Origin: Candidatus Eiseniibacteriota bacterium
GTDB lineage: Bacteria; Eisenbacteria; RBG-16-71-46; CAIMUX01; VGJL01
Length of the DNA stretch: 64,000 bases
Assembly (NCBI GenBank): GCA_034679345.1
Contig: JAXDAY010000030.1
Coordinates: forward strand, 52,925 to 116,924
Direction of reading: 5' to 3'
Under the pieces are notes generated by a model. It searched no databases, was not told where the DNA came from, and was given only the letters and a program-made list of their open reading frames with translations. Positions 1,817 through 54,750 of this stretch are shown one piece after another. Positions within the stretch are counted from its first letter, which is position 1; every line of letters begins with the position of its first letter. Position numbers and translations under genes: made by a program.

Positions 1817-1820
1817 CGGC

Positions 1821-3059
1821 GTGCTCTTCGAGCTGTTCGTCGCGCGCCGGCACCTCCTACCGTACCGTGGGAGGATTTTCCTCTCCTTCATCACCCTGAT
1901 CACCGTGCTCGCCGTGACCCTGGGCGTCACCGCGCTGATCGTCGTCCTCGCGGTGATGAATGGCTTCGAGAAGGAGGTGAAGACCCGCATCGTCGGCACC
2001 AACGCGCACGTGATCCTCCTGCGCTTCGGGGAGGAGGGGATCGCCGGCGCCGATTCGATCGCGGCCCTCGTCCGCGGGATCCCCGGCGTGGAGGCCGCGG
2101 CGCCCTTTGTCTACGCGAAGGCGATGATGGTCGCCGCCGGCCGCGCCGACGGAGCCGTCGTGAAGGGGGTCACGACGGACCAGGAGGAGGAGGTCACCTC
2201 CTTCAAGGAGTACGTCGAGACCTTCCCCGACGCCCCGCCGCTCGCGCCACCGGAGGGCGGAAGGCCGGGGATCATCCTCGGGATCCACCTTGCCGAGTCG
2301 CTCGGTCTCACGATCGGAGAGCCGCTGCAGCTCATCTCTCCGAAGGGAACCGCTCCCACGCCCCTCGGCTTCGTCCCGAAGGTGCGGACCTTCGTTCTCT
2401 CGGGCGTCTATCGCTCGGGGATGTACGAGTACGACGCGGGGATGGCCTTCATTGACATCGCCCAGGCGCAGGACTTCTTCGGATTGGGCGATCGCGTGAC
2501 CGCCATCGAGATCCGAGTCACCGAGATGTACCGTGCGCCGGAGAAGGCGGAGGAGATTCTCACCTCGCTTGGGGGCTTCCCCTACCGGACGAACGACTGG
2601 ATCCAGCTCAACGAGAACCTCTTCTCCTGGATGCAGACCGAGAAGCGCGTGATGTTCGTGATCCTGGCGTTGATCGTCCTCGTCGCGGCCTTCAACATCG
2701 CTTCGACCCAGATCATGCTCGTCAAGGTCAAGCGCCGTGAGATCGGCGTGCTGAAGTCGATGGGGGCGACTGAGGGGAAGATCCGCAGGCTATTCGTCAT
2801 CGAAGGGGTGGCGATCGGGGCCGTGGGCATGCTCCTGGGGACGGCGCTCGGTCTCCTTCTTTGCTGGATGCTTGAGCGCTACAAGTTCATCAAGCTGCCG
2901 GGGGACGTCTATTTCATCGACACCCTGCCCGCGCGGGTCTCGGTTCCGGACGTGCTCTGGATCGAGCTGGCCGTCATCGTTCTGAGCGTGGCGGCGACGT
3001 TCATCCCCGCGATGTGGGCGTCGCGCTTCGATCCCGTGGAGGCGATCCGGCATGAGTGA
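1821..3059 (+). CDS. lolE: Lipoprotein-release ABC transporter permease, LolC/LolE family (FtsX-like)
   Basis: 412 aa. An N-terminal TM helix, a large periplasmic MacB-like domain and a C-terminal FtsX 3-TM region (LILALIVLVAAFNIASTQIM); sits directly upstream of lolD. Confidence 0.85.
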   Translation: MLFELFVARRHLLPYRGRIFLSFITLITVLAVTLGVTALIVVLAVMNGFEKEVKTRIVGTNAHVILLRFGEEGIAGADSIAALVRGIPGVEAAAPFVYAKAMMVAAGRADGAVVKGVTTDQEEEVTSFKEYVETFPDAPPLAPPEGGRPGIILGIHLAESLGLTIGEPLQLISPKGTAPTPLGFVPKVRTFVLSGVYRSGMYEYDAGMAFIDIAQAQDFFGLGDRVTAIEIRVTEMYRAPEKAEEILTSLGGFPYRTNDWIQLNENLFSWMQTEKRVMFVILALIVLVAAFNIASTQIMLVKVKRREIGVLKSMGATEGKIRRLFVIEGVAIGAVGMLLGTALGLLLCWMLERYKFIKLPGDVYFIDTLPARVSVPDVLWIELAVIVLSVAATFIPAMWASRFDPVEAIRHE

Positions 3060-3786
3060 GGCGCTGCTGCGGGTCCGCGCGCTCGAGAAGGAGTTCGTCG
3101 CTCCCGGAGGAATCTTGCGGGTTCTGCGCGGGATCGACCTCGATCTGGGCCAGGGCGAGATCCACGTCGTCCTGGGCGCCTCAGGAGTGGGGAAGAGCAC
3201 CCTCCTGCACATCGTGGGCGCGCTGGATCGCCCCACCCGAGGCGGAATCGAGTTTCGCGGGGAGGATCTCTTCCGGCGCAGCGACGCGGATCTGGCGCGA
3301 TTCCGCAACCGGCACGTCGGCTTCGTCTTCCAGTTCCATCACCTCTTGCCCGAATTCACGGCGCTCGAGAATGTCATGATGCCCGGGCTGATCGGCGGAG
3401 CCTCCCTCGCGGAGGGGCGCAGTAGGGCGCGAGAGCTTCTCGCCCAGGTGGGCCTCAGCGAGCGGGAGGGGCACAAGCCAAACGCTCTCTCCGGAGGCGA
3501 ACAGCAGCGAGTCGCCGTCGCCAGGGCCCTCTTCCGCGAGCCCCTGCTGGTGATTGCCGATGAACCCTCCGGAAATCTCGACCCGGAGACGGCCGAGCGG
3601 CTCCATGCCCTGGTGTATACTCTGGCCAGGGAGCGTGGCCAGAGCTGGCTCATCGCCACGCATAATGAAAGCCTCGCGCGAGTTGCCGATAATAGAAGTA
3701 GGCTGATCCAGGGCCGGCTGATCCCGGAGGATCCGGGAGAGGGCCCGGGACCCGTTGAGGCTGCGGAAAGGACTCAGGGAGCGTGA
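3052..3786 (+). CDS. lolD: Lipoprotein-releasing system ATP-binding protein LolD
   Basis: Walker A GASGVGKST, ABC signature LSGGEQQRVAVARAL, Walker B LLVIADEPSGNLD; overlaps the upstream permease gene. Confidence 0.9.
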   Translation: MSEALLRVRALEKEFVAPGGILRVLRGIDLDLGQGEIHVVLGASGVGKSTLLHIVGALDRPTRGGIEFRGEDLFRRSDADLARFRNRHVGFVFQFHHLLPEFTALENVMMPGLIGGASLAEGRSRARELLAQVGLSEREGHKPNALSGGEQQRVAVARALFREPLLVIADEPSGNLDPETAERLHALVYTLARERGQSWLIATHNESLARVADNRSRLIQGRLIPEDPGEGPGPVEAAERTQGA

Positions 3787-4301
3787 AGTGCCAGGTGTGC
3801 GGCGAGGCCGAGGCCTCCATCCACTTCAAGGACCTGCGGGGCGAGCAGGTGCAGGAGATGCATCTCTGCGCCAGCTGCGCGGTTGAGAAGGGATTCCACA
3901 CCCTCGTCGAGCAGCAGAAGGCCTCCTTCCAGCAGAACCTCCTCTGGATGGCCGAGGGGATCTATCCAGAGGGAGTCGGCAAGCTCGCCGCCCTGCAATG
4001 CGAGCACTGCGGGCTGCGCTACAGCGAGTTCACCGAGATCGGCCGACTCGGGTGCGCCCGCTGCTATGACGCCTTCGACACGCAGCTGCGCCGCCTCATG
4101 CGGCGGATCCACGGTGGGACTCGCCACACGGGAAAGTCGCCGGGGAGAGCCGAGGCTCCCGCCGGGCGGGACGAACAGCTCCGCCGGCTTCAGGAGGAGC
4201 TCAGGCGCGCGGTCTCATCCGAGCGTTACGAGGAGGCCGCGAGGATTCGCGACCAGATCCGCCAGTTGGAGGCGGCTCCCGCGGAGGGGGGCTCCGGTTG
4301 A
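3783..4301 (+). CDS. mcsA: McsA-like activator of protein-arginine kinase (four CxxC zinc fingers plus a C-terminal UVR domain)
   Basis: MKCQVCGE, CASC, CEHC and CARC give four CxxC pairs; the C-terminal UVR-like EQLRRLQEELRRAVSSERYEEAARIRDQIRQLE; a GTGA overlap with lolD and an overlap with mcsB. Confidence 0.75.
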   Translation: MKCQVCGEAEASIHFKDLRGEQVQEMHLCASCAVEKGFHTLVEQQKASFQQNLLWMAEGIYPEGVGKLAALQCEHCGLRYSEFTEIGRLGCARCYDAFDTQLRRLMRRIHGGTRHTGKSPGRAEAPAGRDEQLRRLQEELRRAVSSERYEEAARIRDQIRQLEAAPAEGGSG

Positions 4302-5397
4302 TCTCCATCGACTCGATGCTCGTCGGACAGGGGCGGTGGTTTGGCGGCAGCGGGCCGCGCGCGGACGAGATCCTCTCGACGCGCGTCCGGCTTGCGCGCA
4401 ACATCCGTGACGCCCGATTCGTCGCCCGCTGCCGGGAGGAGGAGCTCTCCGATATATTCCAGCGCGTCGGCGCGGCGCTGCGTGGGTCGACATCGTTGAA
4501 GGGTGGAATGGTCCGGGCCGTCGAGGAGCTCGGAGTCCTGGATCGGCAATTCCTGCTCGAGCGCCACCTCGTCTCTCACGACATGGCGGCGGAGGCGCGG
4601 CATCGCGGAGTCGCGGTCGGCCCCGACGAATCGCTCAGCGTGATGGTCAACGAAGAAGACCATCTGAGGATTCAGTCGCTGCGGAGCGGCCTCGATCTGG
4701 AAGGCGCCTGGCGGGCGGCGGGCCGGCTCGACGACGAGCTTTCCGCGAGCGTCGCCTACGCGTATCACGACGAGTTCGGCTATCTCACCGCCTGTCCCAC
4801 AAACGTCGGCACCGGAATGCGCGCAAGCGTGCTGGTGCATCTCCCGGCGCTCGTGCTCACCCAGCGGATCAAGAAGGTCTTGGCGGGGATCACGCAGGTC
4901 GGCTTCACGGTGCGGGGCTTCCACGGCGAGGGGAGTGACGTGATCGGCAACTTCTTCCAGGTCTCGAACCAGGTGACCCTGGGCGTGACCGAGGCGAGCA
5001 CGCTCGAGAAGCTGCAAGGGATCGTGCTTCAAGTGCTCGACATGGAGGCCAAGGCGCGGGAATCTCTCCTCAGGGACGCGCGCGTCCAGATCGAGGACAA
5101 GATCTGCAGAGCGTATGCGACGCTGCGCTACGCGCGGCTTCTCTCGACTCAGGAGTGCATGGGGATCCTCTCGGCGATCCGCTTCGGCGTGACCCTGGGG
5201 ATGGCTCCCCTGCCGGACACGGGAACCCTGAACGCGCTGCTCCTGTATACCCAACCGGCGCATCTTCAGAAGCTGGCCGGGAGGGAGCTGTCATCGTCAG
5301 CCCGCAACGAGTACCGGGCTGCCTGGATTCAAGAGCGACTGAAGGTGACCGATGCGCCGCGCCCCGGGAACGGGACGGCGGCTGGAGGCAGAGACCA

Positions 5398-5401
<4 letters not shown>
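4298..5401 (+). CDS. mcsB: Protein-arginine kinase McsB (ATP:guanido phosphotransferase family)
   Basis: Phosphagen-kinase signature [13 protein letters not shown]; 367 aa; lies between the mcsA-like gene and clpC, as in the Firmicutes ctsR-mcsA-mcsB-clpC operon. Confidence 0.85.
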
Positions 5402-7839
<2,438 letters not shown>

Positions 7840-7888
7840 GAGCAGATCGCCGCGGCCGCGCCGCGGAGGACGGAGCAGGACGCATCCG

Positions 7889-10213
7889 ATGACACTACGG
7901 CGGGTTCGTGCGGGCGCCGGAGGCGCCGCGACCCTCTGGTTGATCTGGCTTATCCTCATCGCCCCGCCTGCCGCGGGGCAAGAGGCGCTTCCCGTACTCC
8001 GGATCGAGGTCGAGGGCAATGTGGCGGCCGATCGGGACCTCATCGTCCGGACCCTCGACATCCCCCTGGAGGCGCCCCTCTCCACCCGCAGATTGCGCAA
8101 CGGGGTCCGCGCGCTGTGGAACCTGGGGCTCTTCTCGACCCTCGAAGTCCGAAGCGAACCGGAAGGGGACGGCCAGCGGCTCACCGTGGCCGTGGCGGAG
8201 AATCCCCGCGTCACGAGCCTCGAGTTCGTCGGCAACAAGAAGATCGGAACCGAGGACCTCAAGGGCAAAGTCGACCTGCGAGCAGGGCAGATCCTCTCCC
8301 GCAGGCGGCTGCACGAGGGATGCGAGGCGGTGGAGAAGGCCTACCGGGATGACGGGTACGCCATGGCACGCTGCGTGCCCGAGGTCAAGGAGGAGCCGCC
8401 CGGTCAGGCCGCCGTGACGTTGCGCGTGGAGGAGGGGCCGCGCGTGAAGATCGCCGCCCTCTCGTTCAGCGGCAACAAGGCCTTCAACGACGACGCGCTG
8501 CGCGGCGCGGCGAAGCTCAAGCCGAACTCGCTCTTCCGCAGGAAGCGATACACCGCCGAGGCCGCGCGCGAGGACCAGATCCGGCTCGAGGAATACTACA
8601 AGAACCGCGGCTACAGGGACGCGGTGGTTCGCACGCTCGATCCCGAGTTCCTCGAAGAGGGCAGAAAGGTTGTTCTCCGTTACGAGATCGAGGAAGGTCC
8701 CTACTACCTCTTCGGCGACCGTACCTGGAGCGGCAACACGGTCGTCCCCACCGAGAAGCTCGAGGCTGCCGCCGCGTTCGCCATCGGAGAGCCGTTCAGC
8801 CAGGAGGCGCTGGATCGTACCACGGCCGAGGCGTACAGCCTCTACACGGAGAAGGGCTATCTGCTGGAGATCTCGGTGCAGCCGACGATCCAGACACGGG
8901 GCGACACCATCGACGTCGCTTACGAGATCCGCGAGGGTTCGCCTTCGAAGGTCCACGAGATCGAGATCCGGGGCAACCGGCGGACGAAGGAGAAGGTGAT
9001 CCGGCGGGAGATGACCCTCTACCCGGGCGATCTCCTGCGCCGTTCGGCGCTCCTGCGCTCGCAACGAGACATCTTCGCGCTCGGGTTCTTCGAGGACGTG
9101 CAGCTCGATTACCAGCCCACCGGCGAAGGAACCGATGTGGATCTCGTGTTCGTCGTCAAGGAGAAGAGCACCGGCTCGGCGAGCGGGGGCGTAGGCTATT
9201 CGAGCGAGACCGGCCTTACGGGATTCGTGCAGCTCGGCCATCCGAACATCTTCGGCAACGGGCAAAGCGTCTCGCTCTCCGTGGAGCGTGGAGGGCGGCG
9301 CGAGAACTATGAGATCAGCTTCAACGATCCTTGGGTCTTCGGCACCCCGACGGCCTTCGGATTCGACATCTTCAACACCCGAAGGACCCGCGATCTCTAC
9401 ACGGAGACGCGCAAGGGAGGCGGCATCAGCTTCGGCCGCCCCTGGTTCTATCGCTATCCCGATTACACGCGGGTCTATCTCGGCTACAGCATGGAGGACT
9501 ACAAGTTCAGCGATTTCGACCCCTCGCTCGAGGAGACGGACTCCGCCTCTGACGGAGTGCCCTTGGCCGACCGGCTGCGCGAGAGCTCGGGGCTGATCAG
9601 CAGCACCTATCTCTCTTTCGTGCGCAACTCGACCGACAACCCCTTCGATCCAACGCTGGGCGCCCGCACGACGCTTCGGCTCGAGCTGGCGGGCGGGATC
9701 CTCTCTGGGGACCAGCACTATTTCAAGCCGAGCATCGATCACCGGATCTACTTTCAGCCCGTCTGGAGGCCCTCGCTCATGCTCCGCTGGCGGTTGGGAT
9801 GGCTGGTCCCACTGGGAGACGGGAATGGGGTCCCGAGCACCGAGACCTTCCGGCTGGGCGGAACCCGTCCGTTCGAGTACCTCCGGGGCTACGACGACTA
9901 CTATGTGGTGCCCGAGGAGAATGTGCGGGGGACCGGTTCGGGACAGGTTCGTTTCCCAGGCGGCAGGGCGATGTTCGGGTTTACCGCCGAGCTGGTCTTG
10001 CCGATCGTCAGCCCTCTGAAAACCCTCCTCTTCTACGACGCGGCTGACGTGTGGAACCGCCCTGGAGAGATGAGTTTCAACGGGCTGAAAGAGGGGCTTG
10101 GCGTCGGGCTTCGCTTCGAGATCCCGATGCTCGGTCAGGTAGGATTCGACTATGCATACGGAACAGCCGTGAAGGACTGGCGATTCCACTTCATCATCGG
10201 ATCCGCGTTCTGA
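7889..10213 (+). CDS. bamA: Outer membrane protein assembly factor BamA (POTRA repeats plus an Omp85 barrel)
   Basis: Signal peptide MTLRRVRAGAGGAATLWLIWLILIAPPAAG; POTRA-like repeats; a C-terminal barrel ending in an aromatic-rich segment (FHFIIGSAF); the ORF-track start at 7796 is probably too far upstream. Confidence 0.9.
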   Translation: MTLRRVRAGAGGAATLWLIWLILIAPPAAGQEALPVLRIEVEGNVAADRDLIVRTLDIPLEAPLSTRRLRNGVRALWNLGLFSTLEVRSEPEGDGQRLTVAVAENPRVTSLEFVGNKKIGTEDLKGKVDLRAGQILSRRRLHEGCEAVEKAYRDDGYAMARCVPEVKEEPPGQAAVTLRVEEGPRVKIAALSFSGNKAFNDDALRGAAKLKPNSLFRRKRYTAEAAREDQIRLEEYYKNRGYRDAVVRTLDPEFLEEGRKVVLRYEIEEGPYYLFGDRTWSGNTVVPTEKLEAAAAFAIGEPFSQEALDRTTAEAYSLYTEKGYLLEISVQPTIQTRGDTIDVAYEIREGSPSKVHEIEIRGNRRTKEKVIRREMTLYPGDLLRRSALLRSQRDIFALGFFEDVQLDYQPTGEGTDVDLVFVVKEKSTGSASGGVGYSSETGLTGFVQLGHPNIFGNGQSVSLSVERGGRRENYEISFNDPWVFGTPTAFGFDIFNTRRTRDLYTETRKGGGISFGRPWFYRYPDYTRVYLGYSMEDYKFSDFDPSLEETDSASDGVPLADRLRESSGLISSTYLSFVRNSTDNPFDPTLGARTTLRLELAGGILSGDQHYFKPSIDHRIYFQPVWRPSLMLRWRLGWLVPLGDGNGVPSTETFRLGGTRPFEYLRGYDDYYVVPEENVRGTGSGQVRFPGGRAMFGFTAELVLPIVSPLKTLLFYDAADVWNRPGEMSFNGLKEGLGVGLRFEIPMLGQVGFDYAYGTAVKDWRFHFIIGSAF

Positions 10214-10293: not shown

Positions 10294-10824
10294 ATGCTTC
10301 GCAGATTGCGAGTTCTCATCGCTGCGGGCTTCGTCCTGGCTGCCGCGGCCGGGGGAGCCAGCTCACAAGATCTTAAGATTGGCTTCATCCGCTCGGCGAC
10401 GATCTTGGACCAGTACCAGGGCGCGCGTGTCGCGACCGAGACCTTCAATCGGGACGTCGAAGCATGGAACCAGGAGATGCAGCAGCGTAAGTCGGAGCTC
10501 GACCTCATCGGCAAGGCGCTGGAGGCCCAGTCCCCGATGCTCTCCGATGTCTCCCGAAGAGAGAAGGAGCAGGAGTATCAACGCAAGTTGAACGAGTACG
10601 ACCAGTACGTGCAGAGCATCTGGGGGTCAGGGGGGCTCGTCCAGCAACGCAACGAGGAGCTCCTGCGACCGATCGTCGAGAAGATCCAGAGGATCGCCCG
10701 GAAAGTGGCCGAGGAGGACTCCTACGACTTCCTCTTCGACGCTTCCGAGGGAAACCTGATCTACGGAGATCGAGAGCATGATCTCACCGCTCGGGTGATC
10801 GAGCTCTTGAACCAGCCCGAGTAG
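10294..10824 (+). CDS. skp: Periplasmic chaperone Skp (OmpH family)
   Basis: Signal peptide MLRRLRVLIAAGFVLAAAAGG; a coiled-coil-rich sequence of about 175 aa; the canonical position between bamA and lpxD; an RBS GGGAGG lies upstream of the ATG at 10294. Confidence 0.75.
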   Translation: MLRRLRVLIAAGFVLAAAAGGASSQDLKIGFIRSATILDQYQGARVATETFNRDVEAWNQEMQQRKSELDLIGKALEAQSPMLSDVSRREKEQEYQRKLNEYDQYVQSIWGSGGLVQQRNEELLRPIVEKIQRIARKVAEEDSYDFLFDASEGNLIYGDREHDLTARVIELLNQPE

Positions 10825-10830
10825 GAAGCC

Positions 10831-11889
10831 GTGTCGATGCGCATTACCGTCCGGGAGCTCGCCGCGCGGCTGGGACTGGAGTATCGCGGGAACGGAGATG
10901 CGGTCCTGAGCGGCGTGGCGGGGATCCGCGAGGCGGGGCCCGGAGATCTCACATTCCTCGGGAACCCGCGGTACGAGGCCGACATGGCGACCACACGCGC
11001 GACGGCGATCATCATGGCCGAGCCGCGAGAATCGATTGCCGCCGCCGTCATCTTGAGCCATCAACCCTACCTTGCCTTCCTGGAGGCGCTCGGCATCTTC
11101 TCCTCGGGGCGCCCCGAGCTCGCGCCCGGCGTGCATGCGACCGCCCTGATCGGCGAGGGGGTTTCACTCGGGGACGGGGTGGCGATCGGCGCCCATGTCT
11201 GGGTCGGTGAGCGGACGACGATCGGCGATGGAACTTCGATCTTCGCGGCATGCTTCGTCGGGAGCGATGTCCGCATCGGGAAGGGAACGTTGCTTCATCC
11301 GCGCGTCGTGGTCCGAGAAGGGGTCGTGATCGGCGATCGGGTCATCGTGCACGCGGGAGCCGTCATCGGGGATGATGGGTTCGGCTTCGTCCGGGACGGC
11401 GATGCGATCCGGAAGATCCCCCAGATCGGGACTGTGGAGATCGGCGATGACGTCGAGATCGGAGCAAACGCGACCATCGATCGGGCGACGACCGGCGTCA
11501 CGAGGATCGGTGCGGGCACGAAGATCGACAATCTCGTCCAGATCGCCCACAACGTCCAGGTGGGTCGCAACTCGATCTTCTGCGCGCAGGTCGGCGTCTC
11601 GGGGAGCACCGTGGTCGGCGATGGCGTCACGCTTGCCGGCCAGGCGGGTCTGGTGGGCCATATCCGCATCGGAGACGGCGCCCAGGTCGGGGCTCAGGGC
11701 GGGGTGACGAAGTCGGTGCCGGACGGCCAGACCGTTTCGGGCTACCCGGCCCTTCCGCACGCGCAGGCGCGCAGAATCTACGCGTCGATGCGCCAGTTGC
11801 CGGAGCTTCTTCGGACCTTGCGGGACTTGGGCCGTCGCATCGATCAGCTCGAGAGAGAGTCCGGCCGCACGGAGGAGGGGAATCGATGA
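10831..11889 (+). CDS. lpxD: UDP-3-O-acylglucosamine N-acyltransferase LpxD
   Basis: N-terminal LpxD domain (ITVRELAARLGLEYRG) followed by extensive hexapeptide left-handed beta-helix repeats; the position after skp. Confidence 0.9.
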   Translation: MSMRITVRELAARLGLEYRGNGDAVLSGVAGIREAGPGDLTFLGNPRYEADMATTRATAIIMAEPRESIAAAVILSHQPYLAFLEALGIFSSGRPELAPGVHATALIGEGVSLGDGVAIGAHVWVGERTTIGDGTSIFAACFVGSDVRIGKGTLLHPRVVVREGVVIGDRVIVHAGAVIGDDGFGFVRDGDAIRKIPQIGTVEIGDDVEIGANATIDRATTGVTRIGAGTKIDNLVQIAHNVQVGRNSIFCAQVGVSGSTVVGDGVTLAGQAGLVGHIRIGDGAQVGAQGGVTKSVPDGQTVSGYPALPHAQARRIYASMRQLPELLRTLRDLGRRIDQLERESGRTEEGNR

Positions 11890-13202
11890 CGGGCATTCGC
11901 CAACGAACGCTCGCGGGGACCGCCTCGTACGAGGGGGTGGGGCTGCACACCGGCTGCACGACACGACTGCGATTCCTGCCGGCCCCGCCCGAGTCAGGGA
12001 TTCGATTCATCCGAATCGATCTACCCGGTCGGCCGGTCATCCCCGTCCGCCCGGAGAACGCGGGCAATGCCCGCGATCAGATGCGCCGCACGGTGCTGCG
12101 CTCCGGCGAGTGCGAAGTGCACACGGTGGAGCATGTCCTTGCGACCGTGAGCGGGCTCGGGATCGACAATGTCGATATCGAGGTCGATGGCCCTGAGGCG
12201 CCCGAACCTGTCGAGGGGAGCGCCCGGCCGATCGCCGAGGCGATCCTTGGCGAGGGAATCGTCGAGCAGGATGCGCCGCGACGCTACTTCGAGATCGAAC
12301 GCCCTGTCGTCTTCAGCGAGGGCGAGATCCAGATCCTCGGACTCCCCGGCGAAGGGACGCGCATCTCCTTCACGATCCAGTTCGAGAATCCGCTCCTGGG
12401 GACCCAGCACTGCAGCTTCGAGATCACCCCGGAGATCTTCGCGAAAGAGATCGCTCCGGCGCGGACCTTCGTCCTGTACGAGGATGTCGAGAAGCTCCGG
12501 AAGGCCGGGATGATCAAGGGGGGAACGGTCCACAACGCCGTCGTCGTGAAGGATCGGGAGATCGTTTCCGAGGGGCCCCTCCGGTTCCCCGACGAGTTCG
12601 TGCGGCACAAGGTCCTCGACCTCCTCGGGGACCTTGCGCTGCTCGGCAGGCCCTTCAGGGGGCACGTGATCGCGATTCGGAGCGGCCACGACTCCAATGT
12701 TCGTTTTGTTCGCGAGCTCGCCGCGGCCGTCGCGGGCCGTTCCGACTACGAGCGGCTTCGGACAGCGGTCCACTATGACATCACGGCCATCGAACGGATC
12801 ATGCCGCACCGCTATCCGATGCTGCTCGTCGATCGCATCCTCCTTCTGGAGGAGCGGCGTCGCGTCGTGGGGCTGAAGAACGTGACGATCAACGAGCCCT
12901 TCTTCGTGGGGCACTTTCCCGGCCATCCGATCATGCCCGCGGTCTTGATCATCGAGTCGATGGCTCAGGCAGGCGGGGTGCTGCTGCTCCATACGGTCGA
13001 CGATCCGGATTCGAAGCTCGTCTACTTCATGGGAATCGACAATGCCAAGTTCCGGCGGCCCGTGCTTCCCGGGGACCAGCTGGTCCTCGACCTGGAGATG
13101 GTTCGCCTCAAGAGCTCGATCTGCAAGATGACGGGTCGGGCATTCGTGATGGGACAGCTCGTGGCGGAGGCCGATCTGCTCTCGAAGATCGTCGACCGCT
13201 AG
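11886..13202 (+). CDS. lpxC/fabZ: Bifunctional UDP-3-O-acyl-GlcNAc deacetylase / 3-hydroxyacyl-ACP dehydratase (LpxC-FabZ fusion)
   Basis: 438 aa. The N-terminal LpxC fold (GVGLHTGC...HTVEHVLA...HNAVVV) is fused to a C-terminal FabZ hot-dog region (RYPMLLVDRILLLEE...VGHFPGHPIMPAVLIIESMAQAGG). Confidence 0.9.
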   Translation: MTGIRQRTLAGTASYEGVGLHTGCTTRLRFLPAPPESGIRFIRIDLPGRPVIPVRPENAGNARDQMRRTVLRSGECEVHTVEHVLATVSGLGIDNVDIEVDGPEAPEPVEGSARPIAEAILGEGIVEQDAPRRYFEIERPVVFSEGEIQILGLPGEGTRISFTIQFENPLLGTQHCSFEITPEIFAKEIAPARTFVLYEDVEKLRKAGMIKGGTVHNAVVVKDREIVSEGPLRFPDEFVRHKVLDLLGDLALLGRPFRGHVIAIRSGHDSNVRFVRELAAAVAGRSDYERLRTAVHYDITAIERIMPHRYPMLLVDRILLLEERRRVVGLKNVTINEPFFVGHFPGHPIMPAVLIIESMAQAGGVLLLHTVDDPDSKLVYFMGIDNAKFRRPVLPGDQLVLDLEMVRLKSSICKMTGRAFVMGQLVAEADLLSKIVDR

Positions 13203-13220: not shown

Positions 13221-13994
13221 ATGCCGAAGATCGACCCGACGGCTCGGGTCTCGCTTCATGCGGAGTTTTCGGATGACGTGAAGATCGGGCCCTGGTGCAT
13301 CGTGGGCAGGGGCGTTCGCCTCGGCCCCGGATGCGTCCTCGACTCGGGTGTCGTGATCGAGGGACCTGCCGAGATCGGAGCGAGGAACCGTTTCCACCAT
13401 GGCGCCGTCATCGGCACCGATCCCCAGGACCTGAAGTACCGCGGAGCGCGCTCGTCGTTGCGAATCGGCGATGGGAACGTCTTCAGGGAGTACTGCACGG
13501 TCAATCGCGCCACGGTCGAAGGGGAAGCGACGGTGATCGGGAACACGAACCTGATCATGGCGTATGCCCATGTCGCCCATAACTGCATGGTCGGGGACAA
13601 CGCGGTCATCGCCGGCTCGGTCGCTCTGGCGGGGCACGTGGAGGTCGGCGACTACGCGATCATCGGCGGGGTCACGCCCGTGCATCAGTTCGTGAAGATC
13701 GGGGCGCATTCGATCATCGGCGGGGGATGTCGGGTTCCGAAGGACGTCGTGCCCTTCGTGCGCGCGGCCGGCAATCCTCTTCGGGTGGCCGGGCTGAACA
13801 GCATCGGCCTCGCCCGGCGCGGGTTCAGCGAGGAGACGCGCGCCGAGCTGAAGAAGCTCTATCGCATCTTCTTCCGCACGACGCTCCTGGTGGACGAAGC
13901 CCTTGCCACAATCCGGCGCGAGTGCCGGCCGCTTCCGGAGATCGAGCAGTTCTGCCAGTTCGTCGAGCGTTCGGAGCGGGGAATCACCCGTTAG
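13221..13994 (+). CDS. lpxA: Acyl-ACP:UDP-GlcNAc O-acyltransferase LpxA
   Basis: Hexapeptide-repeat protein of 257 aa with a characteristic C-terminal helical domain (RRGFSEETRAELKKLYRIFF). Confidence 0.9.
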   Translation: MPKIDPTARVSLHAEFSDDVKIGPWCIVGRGVRLGPGCVLDSGVVIEGPAEIGARNRFHHGAVIGTDPQDLKYRGARSSLRIGDGNVFREYCTVNRATVEGEATVIGNTNLIMAYAHVAHNCMVGDNAVIAGSVALAGHVEVGDYAIIGGVTPVHQFVKIGAHSIIGGGCRVPKDVVPFVRAAGNPLRVAGLNSIGLARRGFSEETRAELKKLYRIFFRTTLLVDEALATIRRECRPLPEIEQFCQFVERSERGITR

Positions 13995-14002
13995 GAGGAG
14001 AG

Positions 14003-15016
14003 ATGGAGCCCGTCCCGGTCGCGGTCGTGGGTTGCGGGCATCTCGGCACGTTCCACGCTCGCGTCTACTCGCGAGACCCCGCCTGCCGACTGATCGCCGT
14101 CGCCGACATCATCCCCGAGAGGGCCCAGAAGCTCGCCGCTGAGCTCGGCGTCGAGCCCCTGTACGACGCCTCCATGGTGATCGGCCGCGTCGCGGCGGCG
14201 AGCGTGGCCACGCCAACCCTCACCCACGAGGCGATCGCGGGGATGCTCCTCGCGCAGGGGGTCGACGTCCTGGTGGAGAAGCCGCTCGCCGCTGATCCGG
14301 AAGCCGGGGCTCGCATCGTCGCTGCGGCAAGAAACGCCGGACGCGTCCTCGGCGTGGGGCAGATCGAGCGGTGCAACCCCGCCTTCGTCGCAGCCCGCTC
14401 GGATCTGAAGTCCCCGCGCTTCATCGAATCGCACCGGCTGGCCAGTTTCGTGCCCCGGTCCCTCGATGTCGATGTCGTCCTGGATCTCATGATCCACGAC
14501 ATCGATCTCGTCCTCTCGCTCGCCGCCTCTCCCCTCGAGAGGCTTGACGCCATCGGGGTGCCGGTCATCACGCAGGCGGCCGACATCGCGAACGCGCGAC
14601 TCCGTTTCGGCGATGGCTCGGTGGCGAATCTCACGGCGAGCCGCGTCTCGGGGCAGCGGATGCGGAAGATCCGCTTCTTCGAGAGAAACCTCTATCTCTC
14701 CGTCGACCTCCAGAATCGAAGGCTCGAGCGCGTGCGGCTCACGCCCCTCTCAACGAGGGAGTCGCCCGAACCGGCCGCTCCGCCCGAGGCCTTGATGCTC
14801 GCCGCCCGCGGGCTCAGGCTCGACCGCGCGAGCGTCGAGATCACCGAAGGGGACGCGCTCGTCAGTCAGCTGGCCGCCTTCCTGGCGGCCGTCCGTGGCG
14901 AGGGGAGGCCGGCCGCGACGGGGGAGGAGGGACTGCGAAGCCTGGAGGTCGCCGTGCGCGTGCGTGAGGCCGTCGCCACGAGCCTGGCGCGCCTGGGGGA
15001 AGTCCGAGCGGGATGA
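14003..15016 (+). CDS. Gfo/Idh/MocA-family NAD(P)-dependent oxidoreductase (GnnA-like) placed between lpxA and lpxB
   Basis: Rossmann motif VAVVGCGHLGTFHA and an EKP motif (VLVEKPLAA); RBS AGGAGG 8 nt upstream of the ATG at 14003; the stop overlaps the lpxB start. Confidence 0.75.
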   Translation: MEPVPVAVVGCGHLGTFHARVYSRDPACRLIAVADIIPERAQKLAAELGVEPLYDASMVIGRVAAASVATPTLTHEAIAGMLLAQGVDVLVEKPLAADPEAGARIVAAARNAGRVLGVGQIERCNPAFVAARSDLKSPRFIESHRLASFVPRSLDVDVVLDLMIHDIDLVLSLAASPLERLDAIGVPVITQAADIANARLRFGDGSVANLTASRVSGQRMRKIRFFERNLYLSVDLQNRRLERVRLTPLSTRESPEPAAPPEALMLAARGLRLDRASVEITEGDALVSQLAAFLAAVRGEGRPAATGEEGLRSLEVAVRVREAVATSLARLGEVRAG

Positions 15017-16140
15017 GCCGCCTCTTCCTCGTCGCAGGAGAGGCCTCCGGGGACCTGCAGGGGGGGCTCCTCGCCGAGGCGCTCCGCTCGAAGGCTCCGG
15101 AAATCCACATCGAGGGGATCGGCGGCGAGGCGATGGAACGAGCCGGCGTCGCTCTCTTCCACCGCAACGATGAGATGGGTGTGACCGGGATCGTCGAGGT
15201 TGCGCGGCATCTTCCTCGCATCCTGCGGCTGCTGAACGCGGCGGCGCGGCGAATCGAAGAGTCAAAGTCCGAGGCGGCGATCCTGATCGACTATCCCGAT
15301 TTCAATCTGCGGCTCGCCGCCCGGCTTCGCCGACGCGGGATCAAGGTCATCTACTACATCTCGCCCCAGCTCTGGGCCTGGCGCAGGGGAAGGATCGAGA
15401 CGATCCGCCGCACGGTCGCTCGAATGATCGTCATCTTCCCCTTCGAGGAGGCCCTTTACCGGGAGGCCGGCATCCCCGTGAGCTACGTCGGGCATCCCCT
15501 CGTGGAACGGGTTCGACCATCCAGACCCAGGCCGGAGATCCGAGCGGAGCTTGGAGTGGGGGCCGGGGAGCGCTTGATCGTGCTGATGCCCGGAAGCCGA
15601 AGGAGCGAGATCTCCCGGATCGCGCCTGTGCTCGATGCCGCGCGCCAGCGTCTCTCGGGACGCCCGGGGCTCCGCTGGGCGCTTGCTCTCGCTCCGGGGA
15701 TCGAACGGGAGCTTCTGCCGGAGTCGATGCGATCGGATCCATCGATGCCGGCCCGCGCCGGGGCCACCTACGATCTTCTCGCCGCTTGCGATCTTGCCGT
15801 CGCGGCGTCGGGCACCGCCACCCTCGAGGCGGCGATCCTCGGCGCGCCGATGATCGTCGTCTACAAGATGCACCCGCTCACGTGGGAGATCGCGCGCCGT
15901 CTCGTGAAGGTGGAGCACGTCGCGATGGCGAACCTGGTGGCTGGGAAGCGCATCGTGCCCGAGCTCCTCCAGGGAGAGGCCGTGCCCGAACGCCTCGCTG
16001 ACGAGATCCTCCGCTTCCTCGACGATCCTGATCTGCTGCTGCGCACGCGAGAGGCTCTCCTCGAGGCGGCGGCGAAGCTGGGAGCGGGGGGAGCGAGCGG
16101 TCGCGCCGCCGAGGCGGTCCTGGAGGAGATCGCGCGGTGA
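15013..16140 (+). CDS. lpxB: Lipid-A-disaccharide synthase LpxB
   Basis: N-terminal LFLVAGEASGDLQGG, typical of LpxB (GT19); 375 aa. Confidence 0.9.
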   Translation: MSRLFLVAGEASGDLQGGLLAEALRSKAPEIHIEGIGGEAMERAGVALFHRNDEMGVTGIVEVARHLPRILRLLNAAARRIEESKSEAAILIDYPDFNLRLAARLRRRGIKVIYYISPQLWAWRRGRIETIRRTVARMIVIFPFEEALYREAGIPVSYVGHPLVERVRPSRPRPEIRAELGVGAGERLIVLMPGSRRSEISRIAPVLDAARQRLSGRPGLRWALALAPGIERELLPESMRSDPSMPARAGATYDLLAACDLAVAASGTATLEAAILGAPMIVVYKMHPLTWEIARRLVKVEHVAMANLVAGKRIVPELLQGEAVPERLADEILRFLDDPDLLLRTREALLEAAAKLGAGGASGRAAEAVLEEIAR

Positions 16141-16841
16141 AACGACCCGACGCCCAAACCGTTCCGCGCGATCTCAGCGGCGGCCTCCGGCCCCGACTCG
16201 CCGGCGTCCTCGGCGCCGGGTTGGTCCGAGTCCTGGGATCGACCTGGAGGATTGACTGGCTCGATCAGAATGGGGCATTGGCCCGACCGTCATGGGATGC
16301 GCCTGCGGTCTATGCCTTCTGGCATGGGACGCTTCTCGTGTTGAGCTACAGCCACCGCGCGCGCGGAATCGTGGTCCTGGTCAGCCGGCACGCGGATGGG
16401 GAGTACATCAGCCAGATCATCTGTCGCCTCGGATTCGGGGTCGTGCGGGGCAGCTCGACCCGCGGCGGCCTGAGGGCGCTTCTGGAGATGGGGCGGGCGG
16501 GCAGGGAGGGACATCCCCTGGGGGTCACGCCCGACGGCCCGCGAGGGCCGCGAGCAGTGCTTCAGGCGGGCGTCCTCCACATCGCCCAGCGAAGCGGGCT
16601 GCCGATCGTTCCCCTCGCCGCCTCGGCGGTCCGCCGGACACGGCTCGCATCATGGGACCGGTTCCTGATCCCGCACCCATGGAGCCGTGTCGCGATCGTC
16701 ACGGGAGCGCCGATCCACATCCCTGCCGATCTCGAGCCCTCCATGCTCGAGCCCCAGTGGGGAGCGCAGGTGCGCGCGGGAATCGAGGCGTGCGAGGAGG
16801 TTGCCTCGGCCTGGCGGGCGGAGCGCGCCGGGTCTACATGA
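16137..16841 (+). CDS. DUF374 / lysophospholipid-acyltransferase-like protein associated with Kdo transferase
   Basis: 234 aa with a conserved FWHG...(V)SRHADGE core; sits immediately upstream of waaA with an overlap, a common arrangement. Confidence 0.7.
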   Translation: MKRPDAQTVPRDLSGGLRPRLAGVLGAGLVRVLGSTWRIDWLDQNGALARPSWDAPAVYAFWHGTLLVLSYSHRARGIVVLVSRHADGEYISQIICRLGFGVVRGSSTRGGLRALLEMGRAGREGHPLGVTPDGPRGPRAVLQAGVLHIAQRSGLPIVPLAASAVRRTRLASWDRFLIPHPWSRVAIVTGAPIHIPADLEPSMLEPQWGAQVRAGIEACEEVASAWRAERAGST

Positions 16842-18118
16842 ACCGGCTTGCGTTCATCGCCTACCAGGCGCTGCTCGGGCTTCTCGTCCTCGCGGCCTTT
16901 CCCTGGATCCTTCTTCGACGATCGCGGGAGATCGCGGAGCGCCTTGGGGGAGGGCCATCCTCGTCGGGAGGGGCGTTCTGGATCCATGCCGCGAGCCTCG
17001 GCGAGTTCGAGGCGGCGGCCCCGATTCTCGAAGAGCTTCGCTCGGCGAGGCCGCCGCCACCGATCATCGTCTCCTGCACGAACTGGATCGCCCGCGCGCG
17101 GCTGCAAGAGCGGCTCGGTCCGGCGGTCCAGGTGCGTCTCGCTCCGATCGATCTGATCGGAGCCGTGCGGCGCTCCATGGCGGCGGGCCCCAAGGCCCTT
17201 CTCTTCTTCGAGACCGAGATCTGGCCCGCATGGATCGCCGCCGCCTCGCGCGCCGGCGTGCCGATCGCCATGCTGAGCGCCCGGATCTCCGATCGATCGT
17301 TTCCTCGATACCGGCGATTGCGGGCGCTGCTCGCTCGGCCGCTGTCGCGCATCACGATCATCGCCTGCCGGACGCAGGAGGACCGGCGCCGCTGGATCGA
17401 GATCGGGGCGCCTGAACATCGATGCGTCGTCTGGGGCAACACGAAGTACGACCTGGGGCCGCCGCCCGCGCCGCGTCCCGCCCGCTCGGCGGGGGATCCG
17501 ATCCTCTTCACGATCGGCTCGATCCGGCGGGGCGAGGAGGGGGTTCTGGACGCGATGCGCGCGCTCGGTTCGGAGCGGTTCCGCTTCCTGCTCGCGCCCC
17601 GGCACATGAGGGAGCTCGACCATTGGGAGGACGCGGCGATCCGTCGGGGATTTCGAGTCCGGCGGATTGCCGATTCCGGCATCGATGCCGAGGCGCCGGA
17701 GGAGCGTCTCCACTCCGCTCTCCGCTCGGCGGGCGGCGCGGGCATCGACATCCTCCTCGTCGATCGCCTGGGGCTCTTGCGCCGCCTCTATCGGGCGGCG
17801 GATCTGAGCTTCGTCGGAGGAACGCTCGTCCCGATCGGCGGCCACAATCTCTTCGAGCCCGCTCGGGAGGGCTCGCCGGTGCTCTTCGGCCCTTCGATCG
17901 GAGGGGTGCGGGACGCCGCGGAAGCCCTGCTCGCAACGGGAGGAGGATTCCGCATTCGAGACGCGTCGCAGCTCGTCGAGGTCGCCGACTCCCTCGCGCG
18001 CGATCCGGGGAGCCTCTCAGAAGCAGGCCGCCGGGCTCGACGCGCCGCGGAGTCTCTGGCCGGAGGCGCCCAGCGCACGATCGCGGGGTTGCGCGCCCTC
18101 GGATTCCTCGAAGGATGA
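16838..18118 (+). CDS. waaA: 3-deoxy-D-manno-octulosonic acid (Kdo) transferase WaaA/KdtA
   Basis: N-terminal membrane anchor; WIHAASLGEF motif (GT30 N-terminal domain); the internal ATG at 16838 overlaps the stop of the DUF374 gene (ATGA). Confidence 0.85.
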   Translation: MNRLAFIAYQALLGLLVLAAFPWILLRRSREIAERLGGGPSSSGGAFWIHAASLGEFEAAAPILEELRSARPPPPIIVSCTNWIARARLQERLGPAVQVRLAPIDLIGAVRRSMAAGPKALLFFETEIWPAWIAAASRAGVPIAMLSARISDRSFPRYRRLRALLARPLSRITIIACRTQEDRRRWIEIGAPEHRCVVWGNTKYDLGPPPAPRPARSAGDPILFTIGSIRRGEEGVLDAMRALGSERFRFLLAPRHMRELDHWEDAAIRRGFRVRRIADSGIDAEAPEERLHSALRSAGGAGIDILLVDRLGLLRRLYRAADLSFVGGTLVPIGGHNLFEPAREGSPVLFGPSIGGVRDAAEALLATGGGFRIRDASQLVEVADSLARDPGSLSEAGRRARRAAESLAGGAQRTIAGLRALGFLEG

Positions 18119-19185
18119 AGGCGATGAAGCGCCGGTTGCGCCAGTGGCTGGAGCGGGCCTGGGATTCGCCCCCAGGAACCCCGCCGCCGTTCGTCGGTGT
18201 CCTGGACCTGCTCTCGCGCGGCTATGCCCTCGCCATCCGGCGCCAGCCGTGCGCATGCTCCCCCCCCATCCCTGTCGTCTCGGTCGGCTCGATCCGGGTC
18301 GGCGGAGCGGGCAAGACTCCGCTCGCCTCCGAGGTCGCCCGCCTCCTCGAGCAGATCGGGGAGCGACCGGCGATCGTGCTCCGCGGCTACGGCGGCGGGT
18401 ATTCGGGCGCGGCGCTCGAGGTGCCCCGGGACGGATGCGAAGCGGGGCGCTTCGGAGACGAGGCCTGCCTCCACGCCCGTCGGGGAATCGGGAGGGTCTA
18501 CGTGGCCCGGCGCAGGATGGCTGGAGTCGAACGATGCCATTCGGACGGCTGCACGGTGGCCGTGCTGGACGATGGGATGCAGCACAGGTCCATTCGCCGG
18601 GCGCTCGAGATCGTGACCCTCCCGCAGGTGGCGCCCCTCGCCAATGGCCGCCTGCTGCCGCGAGGTCCGCTGCGCGAGTCTCCGCGCGCCCTGGCCCGCG
18701 CCGATCTCCTGGTCGTGAGCCACGCCTCCGGGGCGGTGGAGGCGCAGGAGGCGATCGCCGCGCTCCGGCCGCATCTACGACCGGGGACCCCGATCCTCGC
18801 CTGGAGCGCCGCGCTCCGTGTCGAGCGCGAAGGCGGGCGGTTCCTGCCGCCCGCGCGCGTCGGGCTGCTCTGCGGCATCGCCCGGCCCGACTCATTTCGC
18901 ATGACGGTGGCCACCGCGGGCTACGAGATCGCCTGGATGGCCGCGTATGCCGATCATCACCGCTTCACTCCCGAAGAGCTCGCCGAGGTGACGCGCCGGG
19001 CGGAGTCGGAGCGTCTGGACGCGGTGCTGACGACGGAGAAGGATTCTGCGCGAATGGCGACGACGGCGCAGGGGCTCCCGGCCCACTGCGCCGTCGCGCA
19101 TATCGATCTGGTCTGGATCGGATCGGAGACGGAGGAGACCTTGCGCTCCCGCCTTCGCCGGATCACGACGTCCGCTGGCGGCTAG
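18115..19185 (+). CDS. lpxK: Tetraacyldisaccharide 4'-kinase LpxK
   Basis: P-loop VGSIRVGGAGKTP; about 356 aa; ATGA overlap with the waaA stop. Confidence 0.85.
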   Translation: MKAMKRRLRQWLERAWDSPPGTPPPFVGVLDLLSRGYALAIRRQPCACSPPIPVVSVGSIRVGGAGKTPLASEVARLLEQIGERPAIVLRGYGGGYSGAALEVPRDGCEAGRFGDEACLHARRGIGRVYVARRRMAGVERCHSDGCTVAVLDDGMQHRSIRRALEIVTLPQVAPLANGRLLPRGPLRESPRALARADLLVVSHASGAVEAQEAIAALRPHLRPGTPILAWSAALRVEREGGRFLPPARVGLLCGIARPDSFRMTVATAGYEIAWMAAYADHHRFTPEELAEVTRRAESERLDAVLTTEKDSARMATTAQGLPAHCAVAHIDLVWIGSETEETLRSRLRRITTSAGG

Positions 19186-19745
19186 TCGTCGGTATCCCCC
19201 CAGTTCGCGCAATGCACCGGCAGCTTGGCCGAGGCAGTGATCTCCTCGTTGGAATCCACTTCGGTCCCGATCAACTTCACATTGGCGATGAAGCGCATCT
19301 CAACGACGTTCTCGCGGAGCGACCTCAGGGGCTCGACCACCTTGTAGGCCGCCGGAATCACCGTGATCTCTCCGGTCGCCGTGGAACCGCTGGCGACTCT
19401 CAGGTGAATCGCCCCGAAGAGGGGGGGAAGCACTTCCTCGCCCTCGAAGCGAACCTCGTAGCGATCGAAGACGACCGCCCCGAACGCGCCCGTGCCCTCG
19501 ATGTCGAGGCCGACGTCGTGGGGCCGGTTGCGGACGAGGATCTGGATCTGGTCCTCGACGACATAGTCGTCGCCGGTGAGGTACTCATCGTCGTCACCGT
19601 TGTTGTAGACGTCGCTGTCGAGCGTCTGGTTTCCGTTGATCTGCTCGATCGTGACCACCGACCGGGCCGACTCGTCGTCGCTGCAGCCGGGGGCGGCGAG
19701 CAGAAGCACGGTTGTGAGGACGAAGGCGAGAGTGGAACGGCGCAT
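19182..19745 (-). CDS. Secreted or lipoprotein-like hypothetical protein (acidic, 187 aa)
   Basis: Signal peptide MRRSTLAFVLTTVLLLAAPGCSDD with a lipobox-like AAPGC; Asp/Glu-rich mature part; its stop codon shares the palindromic CTAG with the lpxK stop on the other strand. No family recognised. Confidence 0.5.
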   Translation of the reverse strand: MRRSTLAFVLTTVLLLAAPGCSDDESARSVVTIEQINGNQTLDSDVYNNGDDDEYLTGDDYVVEDQIQILVRNRPHDVGLDIEGTGAFGAVVFDRYEVRFEGEEVLPPLFGAIHLRVASGSTATGEITVIPAAYKVVEPLRSLRENVVEMRFIANVKLIGTEVDSNEEITASAKLPVHCANWGDTDD

Positions 19746-31510: not shown

Positions 31511-31605
31511 GATTTCCAGATCGGCATTCGACTGGACCCGAACGGGGTCCGCGCTTCCGATGTGTTGACGCGCGGGAGCCCTATTCAAGTCGAAGGAGGA
31601 TTCAC

Positions 31606-32286
31606 ATGCGCTCGTTCGGTATTGGACTGCTCATCATTGTTCTCGCAGTGCTTGTCGCAGGACTGAGCCCGACCGCCTCTCAGGCGTATGTCGGGATGCT
31701 CTCGAGCGCCACCGGAGGAATCCTCGGAACGGGGAACTGGGTGCTTGGGGGAACGACGGCGATGGAGTGGACCGTCACCCAGAACCAGGACCTCACCTGG
31801 CACTACGACTACCTTCTGTCGCATCCGGATGGCGAGACGAGCCACATCCTTCTCGAGGTTTCGCCGACCTTCGGTTTGGACAACCTGCTCAATCCGGGGG
31901 GCGACTTTGGCGAGATCCTGCTCCAGACATGGACGGATCAAGAGGGGAACCCGAATCTTCCGGACATCCTGTATGGAATCAAGTTCAACGAGACCTCCGG
32001 TACCGCGACGCACATCTACTTCGACAGCGACCGCGCGCCGATGTGGGGCGATTTCTATGCGAAGGATGGAAATTCGGGGGGCCAAGGCGTCAACACCGCC
32101 TGGAACGCCGGCTTCACGCTCCCCGACTCCGATCCGATCACGGTCCCGCCGCATGACGGCAGCGAGATGAATCACATCCTGGTGCCCGACACGCAGGTGA
32201 ATCCGATCCCGGAGCCGATGACCCTCCTCCTTCTGAGTGGCGGCCTCCTTGCGGGGGCCCTGGCGCATCGTCGCCGCCGGGCGTAG
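31606..32286 (+). CDS. PEP-CTERM sorting-domain protein (putative exosortase substrate)
   Basis: N-terminal signal peptide; the C-terminal tripartite sorting signal PIPEP-MTLLLLSGGLLAGALA-HRRRRA at the very C-terminus. Confidence 0.8.
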   Translation: MRSFGIGLLIIVLAVLVAGLSPTASQAYVGMLSSATGGILGTGNWVLGGTTAMEWTVTQNQDLTWHYDYLLSHPDGETSHILLEVSPTFGLDNLLNPGGDFGEILLQTWTDQEGNPNLPDILYGIKFNETSGTATHIYFDSDRAPMWGDFYAKDGNSGGQGVNTAWNAGFTLPDSDPITVPPHDGSEMNHILVPDTQVNPIPEPMTLLLLSGGLLAGALAHRRRRA

Positions 32287-48122: not shown

Positions 48123-48184
48123 GGGCGCAGTATAGATGCGCCCGGCTCCGGCGACAACGCCCGGCGGAGACCGCGGAGACGGAC

Positions 48185-51378: not shown

Positions 51379-51450
51379 GGTTTCACCTCCCAGGGGTTCG
51401 GTCCCTCTGGGATATCGGCCGGCGCGCAGCGCGGCATGAGGAAGATTCCC

Positions 51451-52506: not shown

Positions 52507-52603
52507 CGATCTCTCCTCGCCGGAACGCGCTGCGCCCCCCGCGGAGAGTATCTGCGCGGCGCCACGCTGGCAAGTCGGCTCCGGAGAGAGGGCCCGCAGC
52601 TGG

Positions 52604-52650
52604 AATCAGCGTGCCGAAGGAATCGGCGCGCCGAAGGGATCAGCGCGCCG
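52604..52650. repeat. About 2.5 copies of an 18-bp tandem direct repeat ATCAGCG(T/C)GCCGAAGG(A/G)
   Basis: Visible directly: atcagcgtgccgaagga / atcggcgcgccgaaggg / atcagcgcgccgg. It lies in the 130-bp gap upstream of the epimerase/HK/RR transcription unit and abuts the stop codon of the upstream outer-membrane gene. Confidence 0.35.
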
Positions 52651-54716: not shown

Positions 54717-54750
54717 GCTGGTTCGATCTCCCGGGCCGAGGCCTTCCGCT

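Follow-up and report, generated by a model that had tools for sequence, protein, structure and literature searches.

Family assignment and genomic context of a candidate GnnA-type dehydrogenase in the lipid A gene cluster of an Eisenbacteria bacterium

What does an oxidoreductase gene contribute when it is inserted between the lipid A biosynthesis genes lpxA and lpxB? We addressed this question for a 64,000-nucleotide stretch of contig JAXDAY010000030.1 from a Candidatus Eiseniibacteriota bacterium (assembly GCA_034679345.1), hereafter the window, in which the plus-strand gene at 14003-15016, designated here gene X, encodes a 337-amino-acid (aa) predicted NAD-dependent dehydrogenase of the Gfo/Idh/MocA superfamily. 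The original prediction, made from the DNA and its translated reading frames, had proposed on the basis of fold and context that X is a GnnA-type enzyme acting on UDP-N-acetylglucosamine (UDP-GlcNAc). The present analysis supports this proposal, as GnnA from Acidithiobacillus ferrooxidans (AfGnnA) is the best solved relative of X by sequence and by predicted structure and shares its pattern of NCBIfam scores. We consider X to be probably an orthologue of GnnA, the NAD+-dependent UDP-GlcNAc 3-dehydrogenase, which would feed a 2,3-diamino-2,3-dideoxyglucose (GlcN3N) lipid A route together with an unlinked transaminase, GnnB.

Relationship of X to characterized dehydrogenases

The reading frame of X starts with the ATG at 14003, with AGGAGGAGAG just upstream as the ribosome-binding site, and its TGA stop codon ends at 15016, so that the gene boundaries of the original prediction were correct. 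Both motifs that it had named, GCGHLGTFHA and EKP, were found in X, where residues 8-19 read VVGCGHLGTFHA and the EKP triplet occupies residues 92-94. The protein has the two-domain Gfo/Idh/MocA fold with an N-terminal Rossmann NAD site, in which the GxGxLGxxH motif and D35 are present, and Pfam assigned the domains GFO_IDH_MocA (PF01408, E 7.7e-23) and, C-terminally, GFO_IDH_MocA_C3 (PF22725). An identical protein is present in public assemblies (P0001) and more than 7,900 homologues were found at E<=1e-10, demonstrating that X is a real gene and not a chance frame. These homologues are currently annotated merely as 'Gfo/Idh/MocA family oxidoreductase' or 'predicted dehydrogenase'.

A simple gene finder based on GC content at third codon positions (GC3) picked an antisense open reading frame (ORF) over X (13991-14749, minus strand, 253 codons), as a result of its overlap rule and of the frequent occurrence of long antisense ORFs in high-GC DNA. 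We discarded this ORF, since GC3 is higher in the sense frame, for which the homology is overwhelming. Similar antisense ORFs are present in many homologous loci and are an artefact of the 69% GC content.

A phmmer search of all PDB sequences identified 7bvj/7bvk as the best solved relative of X (E 1.3e-51, 179 bits, X residues 6-331), with the next sequence match reaching 52 bits over the N-terminal domain only. The 7bvj entry is titled 'UDP-N-acetylglucosamine 3-dehydrogenase GnnA from Acidithiobacillus ferrooxidans', and the structure is also named GnnA in a bioRxiv preprint; its identity to X is 37% over 325 aa (BLASTP). When a family profile of X and 49 database homologues (50 sequences) was compared with PDB, GnnA scored 321 bits and every other chain at most 110. 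An AlphaFold2 model of X, built with an alignment of the same 50-sequence family, had a mean predicted local distance difference test score (pLDDT) of 95.7 and a predicted TM-score (pTM) of 0.92. In Foldseek searches with this model, 7bvj was matched with TM-scores of 0.85/0.94 (E 5e-36), and five GnnA chains led the results (TM-scores 0.84-0.86 by query and 0.92-0.95 by target, E ~1e-36 to 1e-33), followed by inositol dehydrogenases at E ~1e-22. The characterized GnnA in all these comparisons was that of A. ferrooxidans.

An alignment of X, AfGnnA, and 10 diverse homologues contained 62 invariant columns, including GxGxLGxxH, D35, E92-K93-P94, and D161-LMI-H165-D166. Given the general properties of the superfamily, E92-K93-P94, D161, H165, and D166 are presumably catalytic. 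X thus has in common with AfGnnA the full-length homology, the two-domain fold, the NAD-binding and catalytic motifs, and the association with lipid A genes, but it is no more than 37% identical and carries an extra loop and helix at residues ~249-270 that is seen in Eisenbacterial homologues. This insert was modelled as a loop and a short helix with pLDDT values of 83 and 93 in the two 10-residue blocks spanning it. It follows the strand at residues 240-248 and varies among the Eisenbacterial homologues, from ~20 aa in X up to ~60 Ala/Gly/Pro-rich aa in one of them (P0032; see also P0068), and it is absent in homologues labelled Deltaproteobacteria and Binatia.

Among the curated NCBIfam models, the top match of X was the archaeal UDP-GlcNAc 3-dehydrogenase NF040723 (144.5 bits, E 5e-42), which describes the reaction attributed to GnnA; the match covers residues 6-226 only and lies far below the cut-off of 450 bits. 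The myo-inositol 2-dehydrogenase model iolG (TIGR04380) gave 86.7 bits against a cut-off of 355, which was not reached either. Two controls behaved in the same way: AfGnnA itself scored 159.9 and 100.3 bits with NF040723 and iolG, respectively, and a Geobacter homologue with a DegT-family aminotransferase neighbour scored 224.1 and 110.6 bits, in both cases in the same order as X and below both thresholds. Since AfGnnA also fails NF040723, the sub-threshold score of X reflects an archaea-specific model rather than a property of X. In archaea, the product of the 3-dehydrogenase is used for other glycans and is not known to enter lipid A.

Members of the Gfo/Idh/MocA superfamily have diverse functions, X stays below each curated NCBIfam cut-off, and UDP-sugar dehydrogenase and epimerase/dehydratase genes occur elsewhere in the window; all three facts would agree with an alternative in which X oxidizes sugars or inositol with an unrelated specificity, as a WbpB/WlbA-like or IolG-like dehydrogenase or as one of a glycan pathway, and sits in the lpx operon by chance. 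However, GnnA obtained approximately three times the score of any other solved member. The WbpB/WlbA enzymes, UDP-N-acetylglucosaminuronic acid (UDP-GlcNAcA) 3-dehydrogenases, belong to the same superfamily and follow the same logic of a 3-dehydrogenase coupled to a DegT-type transaminase (WbpE/WlbC), but their substrate is a uronic acid and their pathway leads to O-antigen sugars rather than to lipid A. The chains 3q2k and 3q2i, which we take to be WlbA enzymes, matched X with 36 and 28.8 bits, respectively, over the N-terminal domain only and with no full-length similarity. The next-best solved group consisted of the aminoglycoside 3''-dehydrogenases KanD2/GenD2 (6jw6, 6nor; ~51 bits, N-terminal domain only), Gfo/Idh/MocA enzymes that likewise oxidize a sugar 3-hydroxyl ahead of a transaminase but act on other substrates in secondary-metabolite clusters. 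Overall, the WlbA-type and inositol dehydrogenases scored far lower than GnnA.

The lipid A gene row and its conservation

X lies within a tightly packed row of plus-strand genes with the order bamA-skp-lpxD-lpxC/fabZ-lpxA-X-lpxB-DUF374-waaA-lpxK. The NCBIfam scan of the row covered lpxD (10831-11889; TIGR01853, 353 bits), the lpxC/fabZ fusion (11886-13202; NF009667, 496 bits against a cut-off of 465; Pfam LpxC and FabA), lpxA for the UDP-GlcNAc / UDP-GlcNAc3N acyltransferase (13221-13994; TIGR01852, 314 bits, and NF003657, 338 bits), and lpxB for the lipid A disaccharide synthase (15013-16140; TIGR00215, 280 bits), all of which passed the curated cut-offs. The other genes were assigned by Pfam. 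At the head of the row are bamA (Omp85; 7796-10213, start codon uncertain), an ORF whose syntenic genes in two Eisenbacteria loci (L084, L085) have POTRA and Omp85 domains, and the skp/ompH chaperone gene (~10294-10824, start approximate; OmpH, E 4e-27). Downstream of lpxB are a candidate DUF374/LpxJ-family late acyltransferase gene (16137-16841; DUF374, E 6e-28), the Kdo transferase gene waaA (16838-18118), and the lipid A 4'-kinase gene lpxK (18124-19185), the last two corresponding to called genes with the Pfam domains Glycos_transf_N and LpxK in a locus identical to the window (L001, offset 13012).

There are 9 nt between the end of lpxA and the start of X, and the stop codon of X overlaps the start codon of lpxB in the 4-nt sequence ATGA (15013-15016); lpxD and lpxC also overlap by 4 nt. 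The overlapping lpxD-lpxC/fabZ-lpxA-X-lpxB array described in the original prediction was therefore confirmed in its gene identities and in both 4-nt overlaps. Judging from the gene spacing alone, X, lpxA, and lpxB probably belong to one lipid A operon in which they are transcribed together and coupled in translation. A consensus scan for promoters and terminators between 7 and 20 kb returned counts at chance level, with none above chance inside the row. The DUF374 gene overlaps lpxB and waaA by 4 nt each and is found at this position in loci of Eisenbacteria and Binatia, among others; proteins with DUF374 make up LpxJ, a family of late acyltransferases of lipid A (PMC6148475).

Homologues of X were then placed in context by scanning a single genome for each species, which yielded 80 homologous loci from Gammaproteobacteria, Acidobacteriota, Binatia, Bdellovibrionota, Desulfobacterota, Nitrospirota, Verrucomicrobiota, Planctomycetota, Ignavibacteria, Bacteroidota, KSB1, Omnitrophota, and Eisenbacteria, among other lineages. 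Neighbouring genes were sought by tblastn with the Lpx proteins of the window, and the resulting counts are lower bounds, as several contigs end early. lpxA and/or lpxB were detected within 2.5 kb of the homologue in 40 of the 80 loci, and both genes in 17. The slot between lpxA and lpxB is kept for the homologue across at least ten phyla, a conservation that chance placement would not give. Together with the scores described above, this leads us to regard an unrelated dehydrogenase placed fortuitously in the lpx operon as quite improbable. Single-linkage clustering of the neighbouring ORFs merged LpxB with out-of-frame ORFs, and the tblastn counts were used instead; no alternative conserved partner of gnnA emerged from the clustering in the 80 loci.

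The named homologues closest to X belong to Candidatus Eisenbacteria metagenome-assembled genomes (50-67% identity). Four other Eisenbacteria loci with the arrangement lpxA-X-lpxB were found, with identities to X of 44% (L021), 46% (L037), 64% (L084), and 50% (L085). All four have the order lpxD-lpxC/fabZ-lpxA-X-lpxB-DUF374 with lpxK farther downstream, and no DegT gene was found in their flanks. An annotated or detected copy of waaA is present in L037, L084, and L085, and none was detected in L021; the gene at the lpxD position of L085 has no Pfam match on record. Synteny in L084 and L085 extends through nadB, a GT9 gene, mutL, and miaA, and in L085 also upstream to mcsB and clpC; the window is syntenic with GCA_016712505.1. 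The absence of X from the lpx clusters of close relatives, which the original prediction had listed among adverse findings, was thus not encountered, as the gene has the same place in four Eisenbacteria loci and in many phyla. In a neighbour-joining tree, which was star-like and had no outgroup, X pairs with an Eisenbacteria sequence near GnnA, and homologues that have a DegT neighbour are mixed with those that lack one.

No candidate for LpxH, LpxI, or LpxG was identified in the window by Pfam scans of selected ORFs, and the cluster, complete in other respects, lacks the hydrolase step. Loci from Binatia, Acidobacteriota, and Nitrospirota have lpxI between lpxA and gnnA, as in L005, where the gene at 9141-10000 carries Pfam LpxI_N and LpxI_C; the other loci compared for this slot were L013, L017, L030, L031, L039, L045, L049, L069, L073, and L074. 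Both facts would fit a reading in which X stands in for the UDP-2,3-diacylglucosamine hydrolase step (LpxH/LpxI/LpxG). However, the loci with lpxI have gnnA as well, so that the two genes are not alternatives to each other, and X has the features of an ordinary NAD-binding dehydrogenase, the EKP lysine and the conserved histidine being intact, and none of a hydrolase. The hydrolase may be encoded elsewhere, and a role of X in this step is hardly credible.

The predicted transaminase partner

The 64-kb window and the 9 kb past its end, together ~73 kb of a genome that probably comprises a few Mb, yielded no GnnB orthologue. The statement of the original prediction that no gnnB lies next to X held true: the sole DegT-family gene of the window is located at 62088-63269 on the minus strand. 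It was also the only match in the window for the DegT proteins encoded beside gnnA elsewhere (tblastn, 11 queries), and no other aminotransferase was found in Pfam scans of the remaining selected candidate ORFs across the window.

Unlike at X, a DegT gene lies directly beside the homologue in 11 of the 80 loci, nine of which have the order gnnA-DegT-lpxB. These loci (L012, L020, L023, L026, L051, L054, L055, L065, L066, L071, and L072) include Geobacter, Syntrophales, Desulfuromonadales, Thioalkalivibrio, and Methylococcaceae, with several gammaproteobacterial representatives among them; A. ferrooxidans was not among the fetched loci. The 11 DegT proteins share 44-79% identity with each other across phyla and score 424-647 bits with a hidden Markov model (HMM) built from seven of them (L012, L023, L054, L065, L066, L071, and L072), each of the seven being scored in a leave-one-out manner. 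These values indicate that the gnnA-adjacent DegT proteins form a coherent family of GnnB candidates. They are more conserved than the GnnA homologues, which have ~36-47% identity to X. Their best NCBIfam match is PseC, at a sub-threshold score; NCBIfam has no GnnB model, and the family would give a sharp GnnB HMM. A search of a 5.8-billion-protein set with the seven-sequence profile returned, among the matches listed, only Methylococcales-like proteins, and was therefore uninformative about a GnnB in Eisenbacteria.

The DegT gene of the window was rejected as a GnnB orthologue on the basis of its HMM score, identity, NCBIfam order, affinity to DesI, and locus. Its product is 25-33% identical to the GnnB candidates, and among solved proteins it matches DesI best (2po3, E 2e-59), with WbpE far behind. 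The NCBIfam models rank in the order DesI, PseC, and ArnB for this protein, whereas PseC comes first for the GnnB candidates. The gene, which we describe as DesI/PglE-like, is part of an exosortase-type polysaccharide locus (61363-64000, minus strand) that continues in L082 (1-10000). Within the window, this locus comprises the gene for a PglC-like small sugar-phosphate transferase (Bac_transf; 61363-62079, minus strand), the DegT gene, and a Wzy_C gene that extends from 63266 to beyond the window end on the minus strand; beyond it are genes for a GAF protein, a TPR protein, EpsI, the exosortase EpsH, Wzz/GNVR, Wza, and an 852-aa PglF-like dehydratase fused to Bac_transf. The polysaccharide and exosortase gene context suggests that the DegT protein is a 4-aminotransferase of an exopolysaccharide pathway. 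The doubt that the original prediction had cast on this distant gene was well founded.

X could also have GnnA-like chemistry, i.e. oxidize position 3 of UDP-GlcNAc or a close analogue, in a genome that has no GnnB orthologue. The 3-keto sugar would then be used by a non-orthologous transaminase, for example the DegT protein at 62088-63269, or undergo a different modification. This alternative gains from the failure to find GnnB in the window and the stretch that follows it, from the 69 of 80 homologous loci that have no DegT gene inside the fetched flanks, and from the ORF clustering, which yielded no other conserved neighbour. On the other hand, gnnA and gnnB are unlinked in Mesorhizobium loti (PMC5644692); together with the 69 loci lacking a linked DegT gene, this precedent makes the absence of a transaminase gene next door weak evidence against the pathway. 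In addition, the ~73 kb examined are a small part of the genome, and the DegT gene of the window has a coherent context of its own (Wzy_C, the PglC-like and PglF-like proteins, and the exosortase) and a DesI-first profile unlike the PseC-first GnnB candidates. We therefore regard a GnnA-like enzyme in a genome devoid of GnnB as rather unlikely. Its broader form, in which GnnB is missing altogether from Eisenbacteria, and possibly from many of the 69 lineages without a DegT neighbour, so that these would rely on a non-orthologous aminating enzyme or on a 3-keto or epimerized UDP-GlcNAc derivative, is given a low probability; if true, it would imply a lipid A backbone chemistry that has not yet been described.

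Several observations weigh against the assignment of X as a GnnA that works with an unlinked GnnB. X stays under the curated cut-off of every NCBIfam equivalog, the only relevant model being the archaeal one that AfGnnA fails too; its identity to the characterized enzyme is just 37%; and it has an insert of ~20 residues (~249-270) that is absent in AfGnnA. The missing GnnB orthologue noted above belongs here as well, as does the sole DegT protein at hand, which comes from an exosortase polysaccharide locus and scores 173 bits with the GnnB-candidate HMM versus 424-647 for true gnnA neighbours.

The remainder of the window contains further envelope and nucleotide-sugar genes. Upstream of the lipid A row are lolC/lolD-like FtsX/ABC genes (1629-3786, plus strand) and mcsB-clpC (4070-7839, plus strand), the latter directly upstream of bamA as in L085. 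On the minus strand, an LptE-like gene (~47700-48200) adjoins a pair of genes for a sigma-54 response regulator and a histidine kinase (48185-51450), followed by NAD-dependent epimerase/dehydratase genes (51451-52605 and 53757-54785) and a UDP-glucose/GDP-mannose dehydrogenase-family gene (54751-56061); an ORF without a Pfam match (52640-53563, minus strand) lies amid these nucleotide-sugar genes. Other ORFs without a Pfam match are located at 36718-38343, 40281-41471, and 31513-32286 on the plus strand and at 46591-47658 and 19182-19745 on the minus strand. The GC3 screen kept 40281-41471, 46591-47658, 31513-32286, and the frame with 19182-19745, and dropped 36718-38343. For the ORF at 19182-19745, the N-terminus (LLLAAPGC) resembles that of a lipoprotein, and its position after lpxK is conserved in L084 and L085.

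The predicted route to amide-linked lipid A

In the pathway that we propose for X as a GnnA orthologue, the enzyme would oxidize the 3-hydroxyl of UDP-GlcNAc with NAD+ to a 3-keto sugar, and a GnnB-type pyridoxal phosphate (PLP)-dependent transaminase, predicted to be encoded outside the window, would convert the keto sugar to UDP-GlcNAc3N, following the GnnA/GnnB reaction scheme summarized previously (PMC8036547; PMC5644692). LpxA, the product of the gene immediately upstream of X, would N-acylate position 3 of UDP-GlcNAc3N, and LpxC, LpxD, LpxB, and LpxK would take the analogue through the Raetz pathway. The lipid A backbone would thereby consist partly or fully of GlcN3N with amide-linked acyl chains. 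In Leptospira, the sugar selectivity of LpxA depends on the orientation of a backbone carbonyl. A hybrid GlcN3N-glucosamine (GlcN3N-GlcN) backbone occurs in Capnocytophaga, and the sequence of the window would fit such a hybrid as well as a fully GlcN3N backbone. Bdellovibrio has lipid A with a GlcN3N backbone, a statement that was not retrieved in our literature search.

The analysis established the family assignment of X, its fold, its cofactor-binding and catalytic motifs, its operon position, and the conservation of this position in Eisenbacteria and other phyla. On this basis, we infer the activity of the enzyme, the existence of an unlinked GnnB, the acceptance of the aminated sugar by LpxA, and the structure of the lipid A, and we consider it likely that this Eisenbacteria bacterium makes amide-linked lipid A. 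The locus represents a known system, that of GnnA, in a lineage where it was undescribed, with gnnA alone inside the operon and with a small lineage-specific insert in its product; no new mechanism is called for.

In C. jejuni, inactivation of gnnA and gnnB results in more TLR4 activation and in greater sensitivity to antimicrobial peptides (PMC8036547). A wide range of phyla have gnnA between lpxA (or lpxI) and lpxB, usually without gnnB, a pattern that is useful for annotation. If the assignment of X as GnnA holds, a candidate phylum without a cultured member or known envelope chemistry is predicted to use 2,3-diaminoglucose lipid A with amide-linked acyl chains.

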